Below the pieces are notes generated by a model that made no database searches, had not been told where the DNA came from, and saw only the letters and a program-made list of their open reading frames with translations. A stretch of 64,000 nucleotides of DNA, from contig JADLDG010000023.1 in the NCBI GenBank assembly GCA_020846775.1, forward strand, positions 75,298 to 139,297, given 5' to 3'. The position numbers and the translations under genes were made by a program. Below, piece by piece: positions 23,602-63,122 of the stretch (positions within the stretch are counted from its first letter, which is position 1; every line of letters starts with the position of its first letter). The DNA is from Nitrospirota bacterium. GTDB lineage: Bacteria > Nitrospirota > 9FT-COMBO-42-15 > HDB-SIOI813.

Positions 23602-23623
23602 GATGATAATCCAAAGTTATTAT

Positions 23624-23699
23624 GGTCGGGGCGAGAGGATTTGAACCTCCGGCCCCATCGTCCCGAACGATGTGCGCTACCAGTCTGCGCTACGCCCCG
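23624..23699 (-). tRNA. tRNA-Pro (anticodon CGG)
   Basis: 76 nt cloverleaf read from the minus strand. Acceptor CGGGGCG/CGCCCCG, D arm GCGC-AGACTGGTA-GCGC, anticodon arm CATCG-TTCGGGA-CGATG (CGG), T arm GGAGG-TTCAAAT-CCTCT. Encoded ACCA 3' end. Confidence 0.9.
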
Positions 23700-23707
23700 A
23701 CATTTAG

Positions 23708-23830
23708 TTTACGTTGAAAAGCACTCATCTGCGGCGTCAGACGGGCAGATTTGAGATTCAACGTACCATAAAGTACGCCTCATCTCAAATCTGCCCGTCT
23801 TCCTTGCAGCTAAGCACTTTTGAACGTAAA
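23708..23830 (-). other. Structured tRNA 5'-leader element, copy A (nested long hairpin between a promoter and tRNA-Pro)
   Basis: Outer stem TTTACGTTCAAAAG / CTTTTCAACGTAAA (minus-strand sense, one C·C mismatch). Inner perfect 18-bp stem GACGGGCAGATTTGAGAT / ATCTCAAATCTGCCCGTC. Apical mini-hairpin CGTAC-N6-GTACG. Conserved internal-loop blocks TGCAAGGAAG and CTGACGCCGCA. A homologous copy lies at 62868-62992. Confidence 0.5.
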
Positions 23831-23865
23831 CTCCTTCATGCTGATGCTGTTTTTTATTGATCCTT

Positions 23866-23894
23866 ATAATAATTGAGCGGGGTATTGTTGTCAA
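23866..23894 (-). promoter_or_regulatory. Sigma70-like promoter for the tRNA-Pro leader/tRNA transcript
   Basis: On the minus strand, TTGACA (23894-23889), a 17-nt spacer, then TATTAT (23871-23866). The -35 hexamer overlaps the alanine dehydrogenase stop codon. Confidence 0.45.
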
Positions 23895-33979: not shown

Positions 33980-34089
33980 AAAAAATCCCCAAGGCCAATG
34001 ATAACGACCCTGAGGATTGCACCCTGCTTCTTCACCCAAAAGGTTAGACTATGCAACCTCTCGTCCGGAGGTTACAATACTCTGTAGTT

Positions 34090-34224
34090 CAGGCAGGTCT
34101 TCTGGTTTATGGATCAACCTACTGACTGCGCCTTCCCGGGAGTCTCAACACCCCAGTGGCAATTCGCAGCTATCGTCCCCATTCACAGCGGCGGGACCAC
34201 CCCTGATTTCCACAGGGTTCCCTC
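34090..34224 (-). promoter_or_regulatory. Cobalamin (AdoCbl) riboswitch aptamer in the btuF-operon leader
   Basis: Minus-strand RNA: AGGGAACCCUGUGGAAAUCAGGGGUGGUCCCGCCGCUGUGAAUGGGGACGAUAGCUGCGAAUUGCCACUGG…GGGAAGGCG…CAGAAGACCUGCC. Contains the conserved GGUGRAAxUCC-like, CCCGCCxCUGU, GCCACUG and B12-box (…AGACCUGCC) elements in canonical order. A TTGACA-17-TTATAA promoter at 34298-34270 lies upstream. Confidence 0.85.
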
Positions 34225-34334
34225 TTGGCTTAGAACTCATCATTCAAGCACACCTGATTTATACTGTATACTTATAAAGCAGATAATGAGTATCTGTCAA
34301 GTTATTTTATTAATTAGATAGTGCGTTACTTGAG

Positions 34335-34963: not shown

Positions 34964-35101
34964 GGAAATAAAAAAGCCCATTACCACCAGATGGGTAATG
35001 GGCTTTAGGTCCATTAGACACTTCGGCTGCCCCGCTACCCTCATTTATGAGGGCCGGTGGCTATGCGTCCTACCGTTGCCGGTAGTTTGCTCTTATCGGT
35101 G
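34964..35101 (-). promoter_or_regulatory. c-di-GMP-I (GEMM) riboswitch aptamer (35101-35019) plus intrinsic terminator expression platform (35006-34964)
   Basis: Minus-strand RNA: CACCGAUAAGAGCAAAC-UACCG-GCAA-CGGUA-GGACGCAUAGCC-ACCGGCCCUCAUAAAUGAGGGUAGCGGGGCAGCCGAAGUG. Matches GEMM-I hallmarks (GCAAAC, GNRA-capped P1b, GGACGCAAAGCC, GGUAGCGGGG…ACCGA) and resembles the Vc2 riboswitch as recalled. Followed by GCCCAUUACC-N7-GGUAAUGGGC-UUUUUUAUUU, then SD and ATG. Confidence 0.7.
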
Positions 35102-51286: not shown

Positions 51287-51365
51287 AACTACCCCTCCAC
51301 TGCCCTGGCGCCGCATGACCCATTGCATTTACTTCGCAGCAATAAGTACCCCGCGTTTTTCAGCA

Positions 51366-54300
51366 TCAAAGTCTATGATACTCCTGAATGGATTTAATTT
51401 CAACAGGCCTTCTCGTAAGTGCCTCTATCCCGCTGGCTGCCGCTCTTGCACCCGAGATCGTAGTGTAATATGGTACGCCCTTAGTCAGAGCTATCCTCCT
51501 TATTGAATAAGAGTCACCCTTTGCCTTCATATCGCCAACTGTATTCACTACGAGGACTATATCACCGTTTTTTATATGATCCACTATATGCGGTCTCCCC
51601 TCTTTGACTTTGTTGACTACAGTGACCGGAATACCATGTTTCTCAAGCTCGAGGGCCGTCCCCCTTGTTGCCTCAATTGTAAAGCCGGCATTGCTAAGCC
51701 TTTGGGCTATATCAACGGCAGCATGCTTGTCTCTGTCCTTAACACTGATAAAAACCGTCCCTGAGAGCGGAAGTGATGAGGAGGCGGCTGACTGCGCCTT
51801 GGCATAGGCCGTTGAGAAGTCCATGTCTATTCCCATTACCTCTCCTGTAGACTTCATCTCAGGCCCCAGCAGGGTATCTACGCCAGGGAACTTAGAAAAC
51901 GGAAATACCGCTTCCTTAACCGCTACATGTCTGGATTTAACCTCTTTAGTAAAACCGAGGTCCTTCAGTTTTTTACCGGCCATAACCTTTGCTGCTAATT
52001 TAGCCAGCGGAACACCGATAGTCTTGCTCACAAATGGGACTGTTCTTGAGGCCCTCGGGTTTACCTCCAGCACATATACAATACCATCCCTGACGGCAAA
52101 CTGAATATTGATAAGACCAATTACTCCGAGCTCCCCTGCCATGGCACAAGTCTGTTTCTTTATACTGCCGACTATTTCTGGCGGGATAGAAAACGGAGGA
52201 AGTGAGCAGGCGCTGTCACCTGAATGAACCCCTGCTTCTTCAATATGCTCCATGACACCGCCTATCACGACGTCACTGCCGTCAGATATGGCATCAACGT
52301 CAACCTCTATTGCATCCTCAAGGTATTTATCTATCAAAACAGGATGCTTAGGGGAGGCCTTAACAGCACGGACGATATAATCCCTTAGACCGTTTTCATC
52401 ATAAACTATCTCCATGGCCCTCCCGCCAAGTACATAAGATGGCCTCACAAGAACGGGATAACCAATTTCCTGCGCAATTGAGACTGCCTCATCAGCAGAT
52501 CGTGCGATGCCGCTGGCAGGTTGCGTAAGACCAAGTTTATTAATAAAGTCTCGAAATCTCTCCCGGTCTTCTGCCCTGTCAATTGCATCAGGAGAGGTGC
52601 CAAGTATCTTTACTCCTGCCTTTGATAAAGGAACTGCAAGCTTTAAAGGTGTCTGACCGCCAAACTGGACGATAACTCCAATCGGTTGTTCTTTTTGTAT
52701 AATATTCAGGACATCCTCTTCCGTCAGAGGTTCAAAGTAAAGTCTGTCAGAGGTATCATAATCAGTACTGACTGTCTCAGGGTTGCAGTTTACCATAATG
52801 GTCTCAAAGCCTTCTTCCTTGAGTGCAAACGATCCGTGAACACAGCAGTAATCAAATTCTATACCCTGTCCAATCCTGTTAGGCCCGCCCCCCAGAATTA
52901 TAATCTTATCCCTGTCAGACGGGTTTGCCTCACATTCCTGCTCATATGTTGAGTAGAGATACGGAGTATGTGCCTCAAACTCAGCTGCGCATGTGTCTAC
53001 CCTTTTATAAACAGGCATGATATTCAGCCTTTCCCTTACAGCCCTTATATCCGCTTCCTCTGAATTGAGTAATTCGGCTATTCGATGGTCTGAAAAACCA
53101 AACTCCTTGGCCCTTCGCATTAAGACAGGATCTATCAGTGATAAGTTCCCACTGGAGGCATTGAGGATACTCCCTTCCATAACAACGATCTCTCTGATCT
53201 GTTCAAGAAACCATGGGTCTATATTTGAAATGCCGTATATCTCTCCTATACTCATGCCGGATCTTATTGCATCAGGTATATACCACAATCTCTCCCAGTT
53301 GGGTGTTTTGAGTTTCTTTCTTATCAGATCCATTGACTCTGCATCGAAAACGGCATTATCAGCAGCTGACTGTTTCATTGCATTTCCAGACGACTCAGTA
53401 AACCCGTGCCGGTCAATTTCGAGTGAACGTATCGCCTTTTGCAGCGCCTCTTTAAATGTCCTGCCAATCGCCATCACCTCACCGACAGATTTCATCTGTG
53501 TGGTAAGGGTTTGATCAGCCTGAGGAAATTTCTCAAAGGCAAACCTCGGTATCTTGACAACGACGTAATCTATCATTGGCTCGAAAGATGCCGGGGTAAC
53601 CCTCGTTATATCATTTTGGATTTCATCAAGAGTGTATCCCACAGATAATTTAGCGGCTATTTTTGCAATCGGGAATCCGGTAGCCTTTGACGCAAGGGCT
53701 GAACTCCTTGACACCCTCGGATTCATCTCAATTATTGTCATCTCTCCATCTTCAGGATTCACGGCAAACTGGATATTGGAACCTCCTGTTTCAACCCCGA
53801 TCTCTCTTATGATCTTTATCGCTGCATTACGCATTATCTGGTATTCCCGGTCAGAAAGTGTTTGAGATGGCGCAACAGTGATGCTGTCTCCGGTGTGAAC
53901 TCCCATAGGATCAAGATTTTCTATGGAACATATTATCACCACATTGTCAGCAATGTCCCTCATTACCTCAAGCTCATACTCCTTCCATCCGAGGAGGGAG
54001 CGTTCTATAAGTATCTCCCTTGTGGGACTTGCATCAAGTCCGGATTTGACAATCTCTTCATACTCCTCAATATTATAGGCTATCCCCCCGCCGGTACCCC
54101 CAAGCGTAAAGGAGGGTCTGATAATAGCCGGAAATTTCACAATCTCAAGCACCTTTAGTGCATCTTCAACTGTATAGGCAAAGCCGCTCTCAGGTACAGA
54201 AAGCCCGATCTTCTTCATAGCCTCTTTAAATTTTTCCCTGTTCTCTGCCTTGTCTATAGACTCATAATTAGCGCCAATGAGTTCAACTCCATATTTAGTC

Positions 54301-58514: not shown

Positions 58515-58620
58515 AAAAAAAAACCTTCTCACGGTTTTGGCCGAAAAGAAGGTTATCAATAGTATTATTTGTGTATTTAATTGGCATTATCTGATCCTTT
58601 TTAGCCTCGCAGGGCTAAAT
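58515..58620 (-). promoter_or_regulatory. PyrR-type transcription attenuator in the pyrR leader (binding-loop hairpin plus intrinsic terminator)
   Basis: Minus-strand RNA has the hairpin UUUAGCCCUGCGAGGCUAAA, whose loop resembles the PyrR binding-loop consensus (…CCxGxGAGGCU). Downstream is AACCUUCU-N17-AGAAGGUU followed by U9 (58554-58515), directly before the pyrR SD. Confidence 0.5.
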
Positions 58621-58722
58621 TAAAGGTTTAGTTTAATTTAAACTAAACAGAATTTGTTGTCAACACCGGATTCAGAAGATTACTCGGCTGCCAAATCCAT
58701 ATATTTCAACCGAATAAACCAC

Positions 58723-59676: not shown

Positions 59677-62448
59677 TTGACCATAAATAAAATGCTATCC
59701 AGAAAATTTATTTCTTTCATTATTTATACTGTAATATTGCTTCTGTTTTTTATTGTGCCCAATTTCCTTGGATTGCTTACTGACTGGTATTGGTTTCAGG
59801 AAATCGGTTTTAGTAATATTTTCTCAACCATTCTGATTACAAAAATTTATTTGGGGGTGGCAGCCGGGATTATAAGTTTTGTATTCATCTACTTCAATCT
59901 ATGGCTGGCGCAGCGCCTTGTTGTGTCAAGACCTCTGGTTGTACGGATGCCGTCAGGGGTTGGTACACAAACTGACATTGGTAGGAAGTTAGATCTTACG
60001 AGATATGTCAATACATTCGCCCTGCCAATTTCGTTAATGCTTGGATTTTTCCTGGGACTCGCCGGGGCCGGCAGCTGGGAATCTGTGCTTAAGTATTTCA
60101 ATTCAACACCATTCGGGGTGCAGGACCCAATATTTAATCGGGATATTGCATTTTATTTCTTTGATCTTCCGTTTATTCAATCGCTCCTTGGTTTGGGCGT
60201 ATGGCTCATTGTTGTGTCTCTGATAGGAGCAATTGTCAGTTATGCCATGCGGGGGGCTATCACCTTAAATGAGATAATTCCAGGCGCTGGAATCATGAGA
60301 TCGTTATACATGGACAGGCCGGCCAGGATGCACCTGTCAGTTATTGCAGCCCTGTTCTTTGTCCTGACTGCATTTAAGATTTATGCAGTAAGAATCCCCA
60401 GTCTTCTATACAGCTCTGCCGGGCCGTTTACCGGTGCAAGGTTTACCGATATTCACGCTATGCTTCCATTTCTGAAGATACTTATATTTGTTGCTATTGC
60501 CGCTGCTATTCTTTTAATAATAAACATCTTTAAATCAGGCAATCACCTGGTTGCAGCAGCTGTTGTCTTGTATACACTCGTTTCAATCCTGGGCGGTTCG
60601 GTGTACCCGGCCCTACTGCAAAAATTTGTGATTGCTCCTAATGAGCTTATCAAGGAGACTCCTTTTATCAAACACAATATTGAGGCCACTCAAAAGGCTT
60701 TTGCATTAGACAAGATTGAAGAGCGTAATCTTACCGGCGAAACTGTACTTTCTATGGCAGACATCAACAGCAACCGCTCCACCATAAAAAATGTCAGGCT
60801 GTGGGACCGTGAACCGCTGCTTGATACATTCGGACAGCTGCAGGAAATCCGAACATATTATGATTTTATATCTATTGATAACGACCGCTACCGCTTTGAC
60901 GGCGATTACCGCCAGGTTTTACTTTCCCCCAGAGAGCTTAATCCTGTCAGCCTTCCTCAGCGCACCTTTATAAATGAACACTTGACATTTACACATGGCT
61001 TTGGCCTCACCTTAAGTCCTGTCAATGAGGTGACGCCCGAGGGTTTGCCTGTACTCTTTTTGAAAAATCTACCCCCCTCATCAACTATTCCATCTCTTTC
61101 AGTAAGCCGGCCGGAAATATACTATGGGGAACTTGCAGGAAACTGGGTGGTGGTAAATACTAAGACAAAAGAATTTGACTATCCGTCAGGTGAGGAAAAT
61201 GTCTTCGCTGACTATAAGGGCAGCGGAGGGGTCAGGATTGGTTCAATATTCCGCAAGGCCCTGTTTGCACTGAGGTTTGGGTCTATGAAAATACTCTTGT
61301 CCAACGATATTACACCTGACTCAAGAATTATGTATTACCGCACTATTCAGGAGAGGGTCAGACGCGCATTACCATTCCTGAGTTTTGACCGTGACCCATA
61401 TATGGTTGTTACATCTAAGGGAGAATTGAAATGGATATATGACGCATACACCACCTCCGATCGCTACCCATATGCAGAAATGGTCAACGACGCATTCGGT
61501 TCTTTGCCAGGCAGACGCCTCAATTATATAAGAAATTCCGTCAAGGTAGTGATAGATGCCTATGACGGCAAAATGACATTTTATATCGCAGATAAAGAAG
61601 ACCCGGTTATACAGACATATTCCAAAATATTTAAAGGATCGTTTGTTCCGCTTAATGAGATGGATCAGGGACTTAAGACTCATATACGATATCCGGAAGA
61701 TTTATTTGCGTATCAGACAGCGCTTTATACTGTGTATCACATGGATGAGGCGCAGATTTTCTACAATAAGGAAGATCAATGGCAGATTCCTGTTATAACC
61801 AGCGGAAATCAGACTGATTCAATGATGCGGCACATGATTATGAAGCTCCCTGGCGAGATACGGGAAGAGTTTATACTAATGATACCCTTTACACCCCGCG
61901 GCAAAGACAATCTCTCTGCCTGGATGGTGGCGAGAAATGATGGAGAGTTTTACGGGCAGTTGGTGGTGTATCGTTTCCCCAAACAAAAACTGGTTTATGG
62001 ACCCATGCAGATCACCAACCGCATTAACCAGGATGCAGATATCTCCCGTCAGATTTCCCTCTGGGATCAGAGAGGGTCCGAGGTAATAAGGGGAAACCTT
62101 CTGGTTATCCCGATTGAGGAGGCGCTTATTTATATACAACCTATATATCTGAGGGCCGAAGGCGGTAAAATCCCGGAGTTGAAAAGGGTTATTGTTGCAT
62201 ATGAGAACCGCATAGCTATGGAAGAGACATTGGATGCTGCGTTGGCATCCGTATTTGGAGGCAGGGTCACTCAGGATAAGGAGACGACAGAAAGGGTTGC
62301 AACAAAGGAACCCGAGACAGGTCAAATTATATTCCAGCAGGCGAGAGAACATTACAACCGGGCGCTTGAGGCACAGCGCCGCGGCGATTGGGCCCTTTAT
62401 GGCGAAGAGATCAGAAAGCTTGGGGAGTTATTGAGGAAATCCAAGTAA
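59677..62448 (+). CDS. UPF0182 family large membrane protein (COG1615)
   Basis: 923 aa. N-terminal block of about 7 TM helices (…LTDWYWFQEIGF…) then a large extracytoplasmic domain. Recall matches the UPF0182 family but is not verified. Confidence 0.8.
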   Translation: MTINKMLSRKFISFIIYTVILLLFFIVPNFLGLLTDWYWFQEIGFSNIFSTILITKIYLGVAAGIISFVFIYFNLWLAQRLVVSRPLVVRMPSGVGTQTDIGRKLDLTRYVNTFALPISLMLGFFLGLAGAGSWESVLKYFNSTPFGVQDPIFNRDIAFYFFDLPFIQSLLGLGVWLIVVSLIGAIVSYAMRGAITLNEIIPGAGIMRSLYMDRPARMHLSVIAALFFVLTAFKIYAVRIPSLLYSSAGPFTGARFTDIHAMLPFLKILIFVAIAAAILLIINIFKSGNHLVAAAVVLYTLVSILGGSVYPALLQKFVIAPNELIKETPFIKHNIEATQKAFALDKIEERNLTGETVLSMADINSNRSTIKNVRLWDREPLLDTFGQLQEIRTYYDFISIDNDRYRFDGDYRQVLLSPRELNPVSLPQRTFINEHLTFTHGFGLTLSPVNEVTPEGLPVLFLKNLPPSSTIPSLSVSRPEIYYGELAGNWVVVNTKTKEFDYPSGEENVFADYKGSGGVRIGSIFRKALFALRFGSMKILLSNDITPDSRIMYYRTIQERVRRALPFLSFDRDPYMVVTSKGELKWIYDAYTTSDRYPYAEMVNDAFGSLPGRRLNYIRNSVKVVIDAYDGKMTFYIADKEDPVIQTYSKIFKGSFVPLNEMDQGLKTHIRYPEDLFAYQTALYTVYHMDEAQIFYNKEDQWQIPVITSGNQTDSMMRHMIMKLPGEIREEFILMIPFTPRGKDNLSAWMVARNDGEFYGQLVVYRFPKQKLVYGPMQITNRINQDADISRQISLWDQRGSEVIRGNLLVIPIEEALIYIQPIYLRAEGGKIPELKRVIVAYENRIAMEETLDAALASVFGGRVTQDKETTERVATKEPETGQIIFQQAREHYNRALEAQRRGDWALYGEEIRKLGELLRKSK

Positions 62449-62463
62449 AGCAGCATTAACCCT

Positions 62464-62727
62464 TTATCCCGATTCTACACTTTTCCAAGTTGTAACACCC
62501 AGATTCATACTATGAGTTGAGTCTATTCCATTCAGGTGATCATTGCCATTTCCACTACTGCCAGAACCACCGCATCCCGTCAGGATACCTGCAGAAAGGA
62601 CGATGGCAATAATGAAACAAATCACGGCAGCAGAAGGTCTACCATTACTTAAAGAATTATTTTTCATTTTGGCATGACGAGACTCGACGGTTTGCTCACT
62701 TAGGTCAGACTTTATGTTCTTAGTCAT
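62464..62727 (-). CDS. Small putative lipoprotein
   Basis: ATG at 62727 (MTKNIKSD…) with AAAGGGA Shine-Dalgarno. The internal segment …AAVICFIIAIVLSAGILTGCGGSGSSGNGN resembles a lipoprotein signal plus lipobox (LTGC); the true start may instead be the internal MKNNS… at 62667. Begins 60 nt after tRNA-Met. Confidence 0.45.
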   Translation of the reverse strand: MTKNIKSDLSEQTVESRHAKMKNNSLSNGRPSAAVICFIIAIVLSAGILTGCGGSGSSGNGNDHLNGIDSTHSMNLGVTTWKSVESG

Positions 62728-62787
62728 ATCCGTATCCCTTTCTCTGAAAACTTTTCTGATGGTTGCCATAAATGTAGACATTATTTT

Positions 62788-62864
62788 TGGTGGCGGTGCA
62801 GGGAATCGAACCCCGGACAGGAGGCTTATGAAACCTCTGCTCTAGCCGACTGAGCTACACCGCC
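62788..62864 (-). tRNA. tRNA-Met (anticodon CAT; elongator type, tRNA-Ile2 (lysidine-modified CAT) not excluded)
   Basis: 77 nt. Acceptor GGCGGTG/CACCGCC, D arm GCTC-AGTCGGCTA-GAGC, anticodon arm GAGGT-TTCATAA-GCCTC (CAU), T arm CGGGG-TTCGATT-CCCTG, encoded ACCA. No initiator signatures (1:72 is paired, no GGG/CCC anticodon stem). Confidence 0.85.
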
Positions 62865-62867
62865 GGG

Positions 62868-62992
62868 ATTTACGCTGAAAAAGGCCCACTTGCGGCGTCA
62901 GGACATGATATTTGAGCTTCAACGTACAACACAGTACGCCTCAGCTCAAATATCATGTCCTTCCTTGCAATTGGACCTTTTTGAGCGTAAAT
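62868..62992 (-). other. Structured tRNA 5'-leader element, copy B (homolog of 23708-23830), abutting the tRNA-Met 5' end
   Basis: Outer stem ATTTACGCTCAAAAAGG / CCTTTTTCAGCGTAAAT (minus sense; same C·C mismatch position as copy A; T:A to C:G covariation). Inner perfect 18-bp stem GGACATGATATTTGAGCT / AGCTCAAATATCATGTCC (7 compensatory changes versus copy A). Same apical CGTAC-N6-GTACG hairpin and conserved TGCAAGGAAG / CTGACGCCGCA blocks. Confidence 0.5.
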
Positions 62993-63036
62993 CCATGCCA
63001 TCTGAAACTATTATTTCAAATCGCCGTGCAGCATAG

Positions 63037-63065
63037 ACATTAATAAATTTCATCGGTTTTGTCAA
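63037..63065 (-). promoter_or_regulatory. Sigma70-like promoter for the leader-element/tRNA-Met transcript
   Basis: Minus strand: TTGACA (63065-63060), 17-nt spacer, TAATGT (63042-63037). The element begins about 40 nt downstream. Confidence 0.4.
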
Positions 63066-63091
63066 GATGATGCAGCTTTGGCAATATTGTC

Positions 63092-63122
63092 TTGACGTCC
63101 TTACCCCTCCTTGTATTATAAT
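63092..63122 (+). promoter_or_regulatory. Sigma70-like promoter for xseB-ispA
   Basis: TTGACG (63092-63097) … TATTATAAT (63114-63122), 10 nt upstream of the xseB ATG region. Confidence 0.45.

Follow-up and report, generated by a model that had tools for sequence, protein, structure and literature searches.

The 64,000-nucleotide (nt) stretch of genomic DNA considered here (contig JADLDG010000023.1 of a Nitrospirota bacterium, positions 75,298 to 139,297; hereafter the window) contains a long and stable hairpin directly upstream of a tRNA-Met gene. The preferred reading, to which we give about even chances, is that this hairpin, termed copy B, belongs to a family of non-autonomous hairpin repeats that has spread horizontally and has not been described before, and that it is situated between a promoter and the tRNA, transcribed as a leader and removed by RNase P. 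As such, it is probably not a device for regulating tRNA-Met in particular. A second full copy, copy A, precedes a tRNA-Pro gene in the same window. The features of the two loci are as follows.

62866..62994, minus strand: copy B, the complete hairpin element, defined by its fold, a covariance-model match of 101 bits (E = 8e-34) and comparison with copy A.
62960..62969, minus strand: copy B, 5' half of the conserved internal loop with its helix, UGCAAGGAAG, a match to the core pattern.
62891..62901, minus strand: copy B, 3' half of the conserved internal loop with its helix, CUGACGCCGCA, a match to the loop sequence.
62918..62942, minus strand: copy B, sub-apical GA/GA loop and apical hairpin GAGGCGUAC-loop-GUACGUUGAA with the conserved G.U pair, from sequence match and alignment.
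62788..62864, minus strand: tRNA-Met (CAT), in which G1 pairs with C72 and the CCA end is encoded, from ARAGORN and the Rfam tRNA model (66 bits).
23706..23832, minus strand: copy A, the complete hairpin element upstream of tRNA-Pro, defined by its fold and a covariance-model match of 100 bits.
23623..23699, minus strand: tRNA-Pro (CGG), from ARAGORN and the Rfam tRNA model.

Pairing in copy B runs from G62994 to C62866 and forms an interrupted hairpin of 53 base pairs (bp). Its minimum free energy is -83.7 kcal/mol compared with -31.2 +/- 3.5 kcal/mol for 200 shuffles (z = -15.1), and copy A reaches -79.9 kcal/mol (z = -13.4). The parts of copy B are an outer stem (P1; 11 bp, a C.C mismatch, 11 bp, a 1-nt loop and 4 bp), a UUGC/GCAA helix, the asymmetric conserved internal loop, an inner stem of 19 bp in which every position is paired, a GA/GA loop and a 7-bp apical hairpin. 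The outer stem ends 1 nt before the acceptor stem of tRNA-Met, and the 3' end of copy A lies 6 nt before tRNA-Pro (CGG). An initial annotation of this DNA had proposed a structured leader element before tRNA-Met, and the element is confirmed with coordinates that agree to within 2 nt. Its position directly before the tRNA 5' end also stands, with a gap of 1 nt in place of the 3 nt reported, and the compensated inner stem is retained with 19 bp rather than 18 and eight differing pairs rather than seven; the composition of the outer stem required slight revision.

Comparison of the two copies supports the fold. Of the 52 shared pairs, 15 carry changes on both sides and three on a single side, with no pair broken, and the eight differing pairs of the inner stem are compensated without exception. 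The loop sequences, described earlier as near-identical in copies A and B, occur precisely twice in the window, once in each copy, where no occurrence is expected by chance. Several G.U pairs together with the asymmetric loops suit the tRNA strand only, and because of those G.U pairs the complementary strand of either copy folds worse. A covariance-model scan of the window returned no full copy beyond A and B and, as had been claimed, left tRNA-Asn without the element.

The family extends well past the window. A scan of one genome per species with the pattern TGCAAGGAAG-N45-75-CTGACGCCGCA identified at least 120 loci matching both loop sequences, from at least about 55 metagenome-assembled genomes and at least 11 phyla; by our own estimate, roughly eight chance matches are expected for a collection of that size. 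Among the matches listed, the phyla are Nitrospirota, Gammaproteobacteria, Acidobacteriota, Desulfobacterota, Planctomycetota, Bacteroidota, Bacillota, Patescibacteria, Deferribacterota, Myxococcota and Dormibacterota, with record-level taxon labels that include Thermoanaerobaculales (Acidobacteriota), Brocadiaceae, Bacteroidales, Oscillospiraceae and other Bacillota, Saccharibacteria and Bradymonadales. Searches with Rfam 15 of the whole window at the gathering threshold returned tRNAs and riboswitches only, a permissive search of 62700-63100 gave only far sub-threshold matches to plant microRNA hairpins on the opposite strand, and a search of 19 related loci produced no match at the element positions. 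Full-text literature searches with the loop sequences and descriptive terms found nothing relevant, a genome-language-model preprint being concerned with other elements.

Sixty-four distinct variants fold into one common rod architecture with a length of about 125-140 nt. The outer half begins with an outer stem that is variable apart from one conserved mismatch; this is often followed by a tandem G.A step, and then come a UGC/GCA helix of 3 bp and the asymmetric loop. In the inner half, an inner stem that is likewise variable and in many cases imperfect leads through a GAG/UGA step to an apical hairpin of 6-8 bp. Among the pattern-selected copies, the internal loop (5'-AAGGA / 3'-GACGCC) shows no variation. 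In an alignment of 54 sequences, double changes are present in 22 of the 28 consensus pairs, and 89.3% of cells are paired; the corresponding share is 63.5% for shuffles and 30-44% for slid controls. Covariation scores 0.64 against 0.18, and the apical pair (alignment columns 65/85) is G.U in 42 of the 54. In 58 of the 64 variants the forward strand folds more stably than the complementary strand, the mean difference being 10 kcal/mol (p = 1.6e-10). Since it also folds better in 18 of the 19 copies whose host mRNA bears the opposite strand, strand identity is a property of the element and not of the host transcript. One Nitrospirota subfamily (L024, L048, L090, L097 and L135 at 2131-2260; L numbers denote sampled loci) carries an extra hairpin of about 35 nt in the 3' strand beside the GCA helix, and its stem covaries between copies (ACCCATTGC/GCAATGGGT versus ACCCGTTGC/GCAACGGGT). 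A protein start at an AUG before CAAGGAAG was considered and rejected, as this position reads A, G, U or C among copies.

A second line of evidence is the placement of the 3' end. Outside the gammaproteobacterial genome WLWT01, at least 12 copies stop 0-13 nt short of a same-strand tRNA (Met, Pro, Asp, Phe or Ala) or transfer-messenger RNA (tmRNA) at its 5' end, an adjacency with a chance of about 2e-4 per copy by our own estimate. The end of the outer stem falls 0-6 nt before the tRNA or tmRNA +1 position in at least ten independent loci. An exception is L097 (~1274-1281), where the 5' end of the element faces the 5' end of a tRNA-Leu on the opposite strand at a distance of about 6 nt. In most of the remaining non-tRNA copies, the 3' stem strand ends at, or with its final bases overlaps, the stop codon of a convergent open reading frame (ORF). 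Again outside WLWT01, such a stop lies within 20 nt of the element 3' end in 29 of 47 cases and of the 5' end in 8 of 38. The stop-codon offsets in the subfamily of the window are -4, 0, 0, 0, 0 and +4, and in three independent loci the host ORF takes its stop codon from the TGA of the terminal ...TTGAYGCTGAAAAA. A single RNA-level orientation relative to host transcription was rejected, since tRNA-adjacent copies are sense and stop-codon-adjacent copies antisense. Likewise, the outermost stem bases are not an inverted copy of the host flank, given that the same termini are found at unrelated loci and empty sites do not have them.

Remnants have the same polarity, with about nine retaining only the 3' half and two being of other kinds. 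Fragments limited to the 3' half (CTGACGCCGCA plus the 3' stem strand) are located directly upstream of full copies at L029 (965-990), L061, L088, L092 and L108. The window itself holds one remnant.

51305..51372, plus strand: third copy, 5'-truncated and degenerate, of the extra-hairpin subtype and with the 3' half only, as judged against the 3' halves of L024, L090, L097 and L135.

This remnant occupies the gap of about 80 nt between a carB-like ORF of 1085 amino acids and greA, and the TGA stop of that convergent ORF lies within its terminal stem strand. No single mechanism was found to fit the flush 3' end, the 5' truncations, and the fixed duplications that are present in one subfamily and absent from another.

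The case for dispersal as a repeat is clearest in WLWT01, which has more than 65 copies, 65 of them counted in 371 kb of sampled windows. These copies possess a conserved inverted terminal repeat, GGGCRCCTCTAAAAAT, and are flanked by direct target duplications of 4-6 bp at a C-NNNN-G target. Their four possible configurations relative to the flanking genes are represented 16, 14, 14 and 12 times, and orientation agrees with GC skew in 33 of the 65; no lagging-strand or gene-orientation bias was found. An IS630-like transposase of this genome was rejected as the mobilizer because its ends are unrelated. Elsewhere, the contexts are diverse. In the Saccharibacteria locus L075 (2454-2589, minus strand), the element is inserted in frame within the fpg/mutM ORF and adds about 55 residues with no stop codon. 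Four head-to-tail copies with a 129-nt period are present in L052, two head-to-tail copies lie between tRNA-Val and tRNA-Ala in L029, and one copy is in an rpsB leader. Sampled windows with several copies have them in the same orientation in nine instances and in opposite orientations in eight. An all-against-all BLASTP comparison of neighboring ORFs returned generic families only (ABC ATPases and response regulators) and no recurrent neighbor protein. A gammaproteobacterial copy had no BLAST match in plasmid and phage collections, and IMG/VR contains only four pattern matches, so the element is not typical of phages.

One tandem array from Bacillota deserves a separate description. At L120 (5237-6218), an intact tRNA-Thr is followed by four units of 276 nt, in each of which an inverted partial tRNA copy is followed by the hairpin element, by two-thirds of the tRNA (its 3' part) and by a separate terminator. 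As a result, tRNA-derived sequence lengthens the hairpin stem in these units.

Gain and loss of the element can be followed at orthologous sites. The tRNA-Pro locus was traced by the gene order DUF6812-ald-[ ]-sigma-apt. The window has one copy at this site; in L131, a single copy is accompanied by an internally deleted remnant that belongs to another subtype. L135 carries two different subtypes in tandem, L133 retains a decayed 3' half only, and L137 (74% sigma identity) has the promoter, about 20 nt and then the tRNA with no element. Because the site is empty in L137 and decayed in L133, tRNA-Pro can do without it, contrary to the idea of a leader that this tRNA needs. A second filled and empty site involves two ORFs that overlap as TGATG in the window and in L131, and which are translationally coupled in the window. 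At the same site, L135 has the element and about 50 nt between the ORFs, with the stop codon rebuilt from a host T and the AG of the element, and L133 has a 37-nt remnant.

The tRNA-Met locus was traced through xseB; the UPF0182 gene could not be used for this purpose as its synteny is not conserved. All five close relatives (L142, L143, L144, L145 and L148) have the element before tRNA-Met, in one to three copies, with two in tandem in L144 and three in L145. At sites with several copies, the decayed ones are those closer to the promoter. One inner-stem pair reads G-C, A-U or U-A in three relatives. The initial annotation had raised the prospect that related leaders might lack the element; that objection fails, since the close relatives keep it. 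As a separate observation, short-read contigs carrying the neighboring genes often stop within about 50 nt of the element or the tRNA (L125, L127-L130, L134, L136, L144 and L146), and assemblies appear to break at the hairpin repeat.

Where orthologous copies can be compared, they diverge slowly. Those of copy B differ by 2-6% versus 22-24% at xseB third positions, with corresponding values of 19% and 47% for L148, and copy A differs from its L131 counterpart by about 7% versus 36% at apt third positions. The changes are concentrated in stems and are compensated. This pattern, as read from aligned sequences, indicates probable purifying selection on the fold and the loops. The tRNA-Pro copy of L135 bears the apical domain of copy B, and thus exchange between copies occurs as well; for this reason, slow divergence is no proof of a host function.

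Transcription of the two full copies from upstream promoters is suggested by the following sites.

63037..63065, minus strand: promoter-like TTGACA-17-TAATGT upstream of copy B, read from the sequence and invariant in five orthologous loci.
23866..23894, minus strand: promoter TTGACA-17-TATTAT upstream of copy A, with 11 of 12 positions matching and also present at the empty orthologous site.

The site before copy B consists of TTGACA at 63065-63060, a 17-nt spacer and TAATGT at 63042-63037. Its -10 hexamer fits only three of six positions and falls below the threshold of the scan tool, which did not call it. The complete motif is nonetheless unchanged across the five orthologous tRNA-Met loci, and the hexamers and spacing given in the initial annotation are present. 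Given this promoter-like site, copy B would begin about 35 nt into the primary transcript. Since a conserved promoter lies upstream of the element, the element must be part of the tRNA precursor, and the earlier proposal of a conserved structure on the tRNA strand within that precursor agrees with the G.U pairs and asymmetric loops described above.

The preferred reading, a mobile repeat family with copies in tRNA leaders, can be put in mechanistic terms. The element would propagate within and between genomes and would land, or survive, with its 3' end flush to a gene boundary, this being either the 5' end of a same-strand tRNA or tmRNA or the stop codon of a convergent ORF. RNase P cleaves tRNA precursors at the tRNA +1 position. 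An element transcribed as a 5' leader would then be severed from the tRNA by this enzyme, and the leader may offer a harmless and highly transcribed place because RNase P cuts the element away at +1. The stems could stay paired through selection for a folded single strand, aided by exchange between copies, and the invariant loop may be the recognition site of a trans-acting factor encoded elsewhere, which could be either copying or moving machinery or a conserved host protein. A bolder version is put forward only tentatively, as something possible that we would not ourselves expect: the conserved asymmetric loop might be a handle for a widely distributed machinery that inserts the folded single strand 3' end first at RNase P sites and stop codons, or else the mark of a mobile ribonucleoprotein RNA that spans phyla. 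Either would represent a new class of genetic element.

Several points weigh against a mobile repeat family. The loops were demanded by the search, which means that their invariance across phyla is partly built in; 15 covariance-model or terminal-repeat matches without the exact pattern, mostly from the WLWT genome, have one to four substitutions each over both loop motifs. An optional extra hairpin with a covarying stem, as aligned here, would be typical of functional RNAs, and the sense orientation of 11 of the 12 tRNA-adjacent copies is another trait of such RNAs. Slow divergence argues for constraint at the locus rather than for passive junk, although gene conversion could give the same pattern. 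Within the 8-kb windows sampled around the loci, no transposase, reverse transcriptase or recombinase partner and no autonomous parent were found, and the Nitrospirota subfamily of the window, its filled and empty sites included, displays no clear target-site duplication.

Some of these points would be accommodated by a trans-acting structured small RNA, the main rival, which we find rather doubtful yet worth setting out in full. The forward-strand rod would be the product, made from the tRNA promoter with its 3' end set by RNase P; the loop and tandem G.A step would bind a conserved protein or RNA, and the dispersed copies would have been amplified or have decayed. The strand-specific fold with its conserved G.U pairs, the loop nucleotides that are shared across phyla while the stems covary, and the covarying optional hairpin all speak for this, as do the sense placement of the outer stem close to +1 in independent loci, the one to three copies in the leader, a rate of evolution 4-10 times slower than that of synonymous sites, and the single pattern match in each of five Saccharibacteria assemblies. 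Such an RNA is difficult to reconcile with the non-tRNA copies, most of which are antisense to both flanking genes and have no conserved promoter, with the random orientation in WLWT01, with copies that decay or vanish at orthologous sites, or with the one that is translated as part of Fpg; no linked partner gene was present in the sampled windows. A cis-acting leader is decidedly unlikely. On that view, the hairpin would act on tRNA-Met and tRNA-Pro by altering their transcription, the stability of their precursors or the access of RNase P, and it might for instance serve as a site of RNase III entry or as an element for growth-rate control. The element does adjoin the tRNA, the upstream promoter is conserved, orthologues retain the element, and the same layout recurs before tmRNA and before tRNAs in Bacteroidota. 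The tRNA-specific regulator proposed in the initial annotation is nevertheless not supported, given the breadth of the family: five tRNA specificities and tmRNA are involved with no common logic, no rule based on rare-codon, initiator or lysidine tRNAs emerges from comparing isoacceptors, and most family members are located away from tRNAs. In addition, the gap between element and tRNA ranges from 0 to 13 nt, and the orthologous tRNA-Pro has the same promoter with no element (L137) or with a decayed one (L133).

We regard it as highly improbable that the element is an intrinsic transcription terminator or insulator, perhaps acting in both directions, whose repetition is incidental. In the Nitrospirota copies, the outer stem has A5 and U5 runs around a stem rich in G+C, many copies come after ORF stop codons, and the L133 remnant resembles a small terminator after its internal deletion. 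An efficient terminator in the sense position between promoter and tRNA, however, would silence the tRNA. Moreover, the scan tool calls no terminator for the whole element, and its one call in copy A is an alternative fold of 6 bp that spans the 3' loop; U tracts are missing from the subfamilies of Acidobacteriota, Planctomycetota and Bacteroidota; and a terminator does not need an invariant asymmetric internal loop. Termination of convergent transcription from upstream, a possibility named earlier, does not apply to copy B, because xseB diverges and no gene converges from that side.

Among known elements, this one acts most like REPINs or MITEs (miniature transposable elements with inverted repeats), and its geometry relative to ORFs resembles that of integron attC sites, yet it lacks defining traits of each. 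With REP (repetitive extragenic palindromic) sequences and REPINs mobilized by RAYT proteins (HUH Y1), it shares an extragenic, non-coding and multi-copy nature, imperfect hairpins of about 100 nt, a strand-specific fold, frequent placement directly after stop codons, and the lack of an internal transposase, such that a mover would be expected in trans. A REPIN, however, is composed of two inverted short REP palindromes with a GTAG or CGTC tag; the element has no tag and its arms are not palindromic. REP sequences are species-specific and co-evolve with their RAYT, whereas the element shares 21 loop nucleotides across at least 11 phyla. RAYT or IS200-type transposition makes no target-site duplications and one subfamily of the element does; no RAYT gene was seen in the sampled windows. 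The flanks also differ from those of an IS200/IS605 remnant (a palindrome-associated transposable element) in that they vary and are duplicated, with the orientation following GC skew in about half of the WLWT01 copies.

Resemblance to MITEs such as Correia/NEMIS, ERIC and the Rickettsia palindromic elements lies in a length near 130 bp, terminal inverted repeats folding into a hairpin (here the outer stem, with GGGCRCCTCTAAAAAT as the WLWT terminus), presence/absence polymorphism, co-transcription with neighbors and, in the gammaproteobacterial subfamily only, target-site duplications; in-frame ORF insertion is shared with the Rickettsia elements. The termini, however, differ completely between subfamilies while the internal asymmetric loop is constant, which is the reverse of a normal MITE, and no parent insertion sequence was found in the 8-kb windows. 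Furthermore, the element meets gene boundaries flush at its 3' end only and most of its remnants have lost their 5' part, neither polarity being seen in classical MITEs. Integron attC sites are similar in that a folded single strand is conserved, unpaired bases give strand identity, the central part is variable, and the site begins at or over the stop codon of the adjacent ORF with the structured strand antisense to it. The element differs from attC in having no RYYYAAC or GTTRRRY core sites, its termini being AGTTGAC...GTCAACT or, in other subfamilies, unrelated to this. It also forms no cassette arrays, with no IntI nearby and no integrase family recurring in the sampled windows; attC sites conserve structure and not sequence, whereas the element conserves its loop sequence, and no Rfam family matches it, including any attC model held there.

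Two more distant comparisons concern retroelements and dicistronic tRNA precursors. A retroelement resembling short interspersed elements would share the 3' end at gene boundaries and the excess of 3'-half remnants; it would differ in the fixed-length duplications, where visible, and no reverse transcriptase was found in the sampled windows. MALAT1/mascRNA and the tRNA-snoRNA dicistrons of plants and archaea also have a structured RNA directly upstream of a tRNA or tRNA-like sequence, where tRNA processing would set the 3' end. These are single-locus functional genes, unlike the element, which is mostly located away from tRNAs. What the element shows at tRNAs is the geometry, with the outer stem ending 0-6 nt before +1. 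By-eye likeness to signal recognition particle RNA, 6S, Y, box C/D and H/ACA RNAs, the K-turn, loop E, the hammerhead, boxA and a sigma-54 promoter proved superficial, and those models held in Rfam do not match.

If the preferred reading of a mobile repeat family is correct, an element of 130 nt whose stems covary and whose loop signature of 21 nt recurs in at least 11 phyla has been missed by Rfam and by the searchable repeat literature. A constant interior with free termini would imply a conserved trans-acting partner. The flush 3' end and the 5'-truncated remnants would point to a polar insertion or copying mechanism not described in bacteria, and would provide a handle for finding it. On the practical side, the element may break short-read assemblies at tRNA loci, it can supply host genes with stop codons and C-terminal residues, and inspection of a single genome would mistake it for a tRNA-specific regulator.

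The surroundings of the two loci include other features of note. The window also carries a cobalamin riboswitch, a c-di-GMP-I riboswitch and a PyrR binding site (34075-34272, 35022-35101 and 58515-58630, respectively, all on the minus strand), with the c-di-GMP-I riboswitch about 600 nt away from tRNA-Asn. Directly 3' of tRNA-Met is a small ORF (62464-62781, minus strand) with a lipobox (LTGC). Co-transcription of the two is possible, as no terminator was called between them by the scan tool. Beyond it, a UPF0182 membrane protein (59677-62448, plus strand) has its best homologues outside the close Nitrospirota relatives in sequences labelled Patescibacteria/Parcubacteria, at 73-76% identity. 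Downstream of the UPF0182 gene, the gene order varies even among close relatives.

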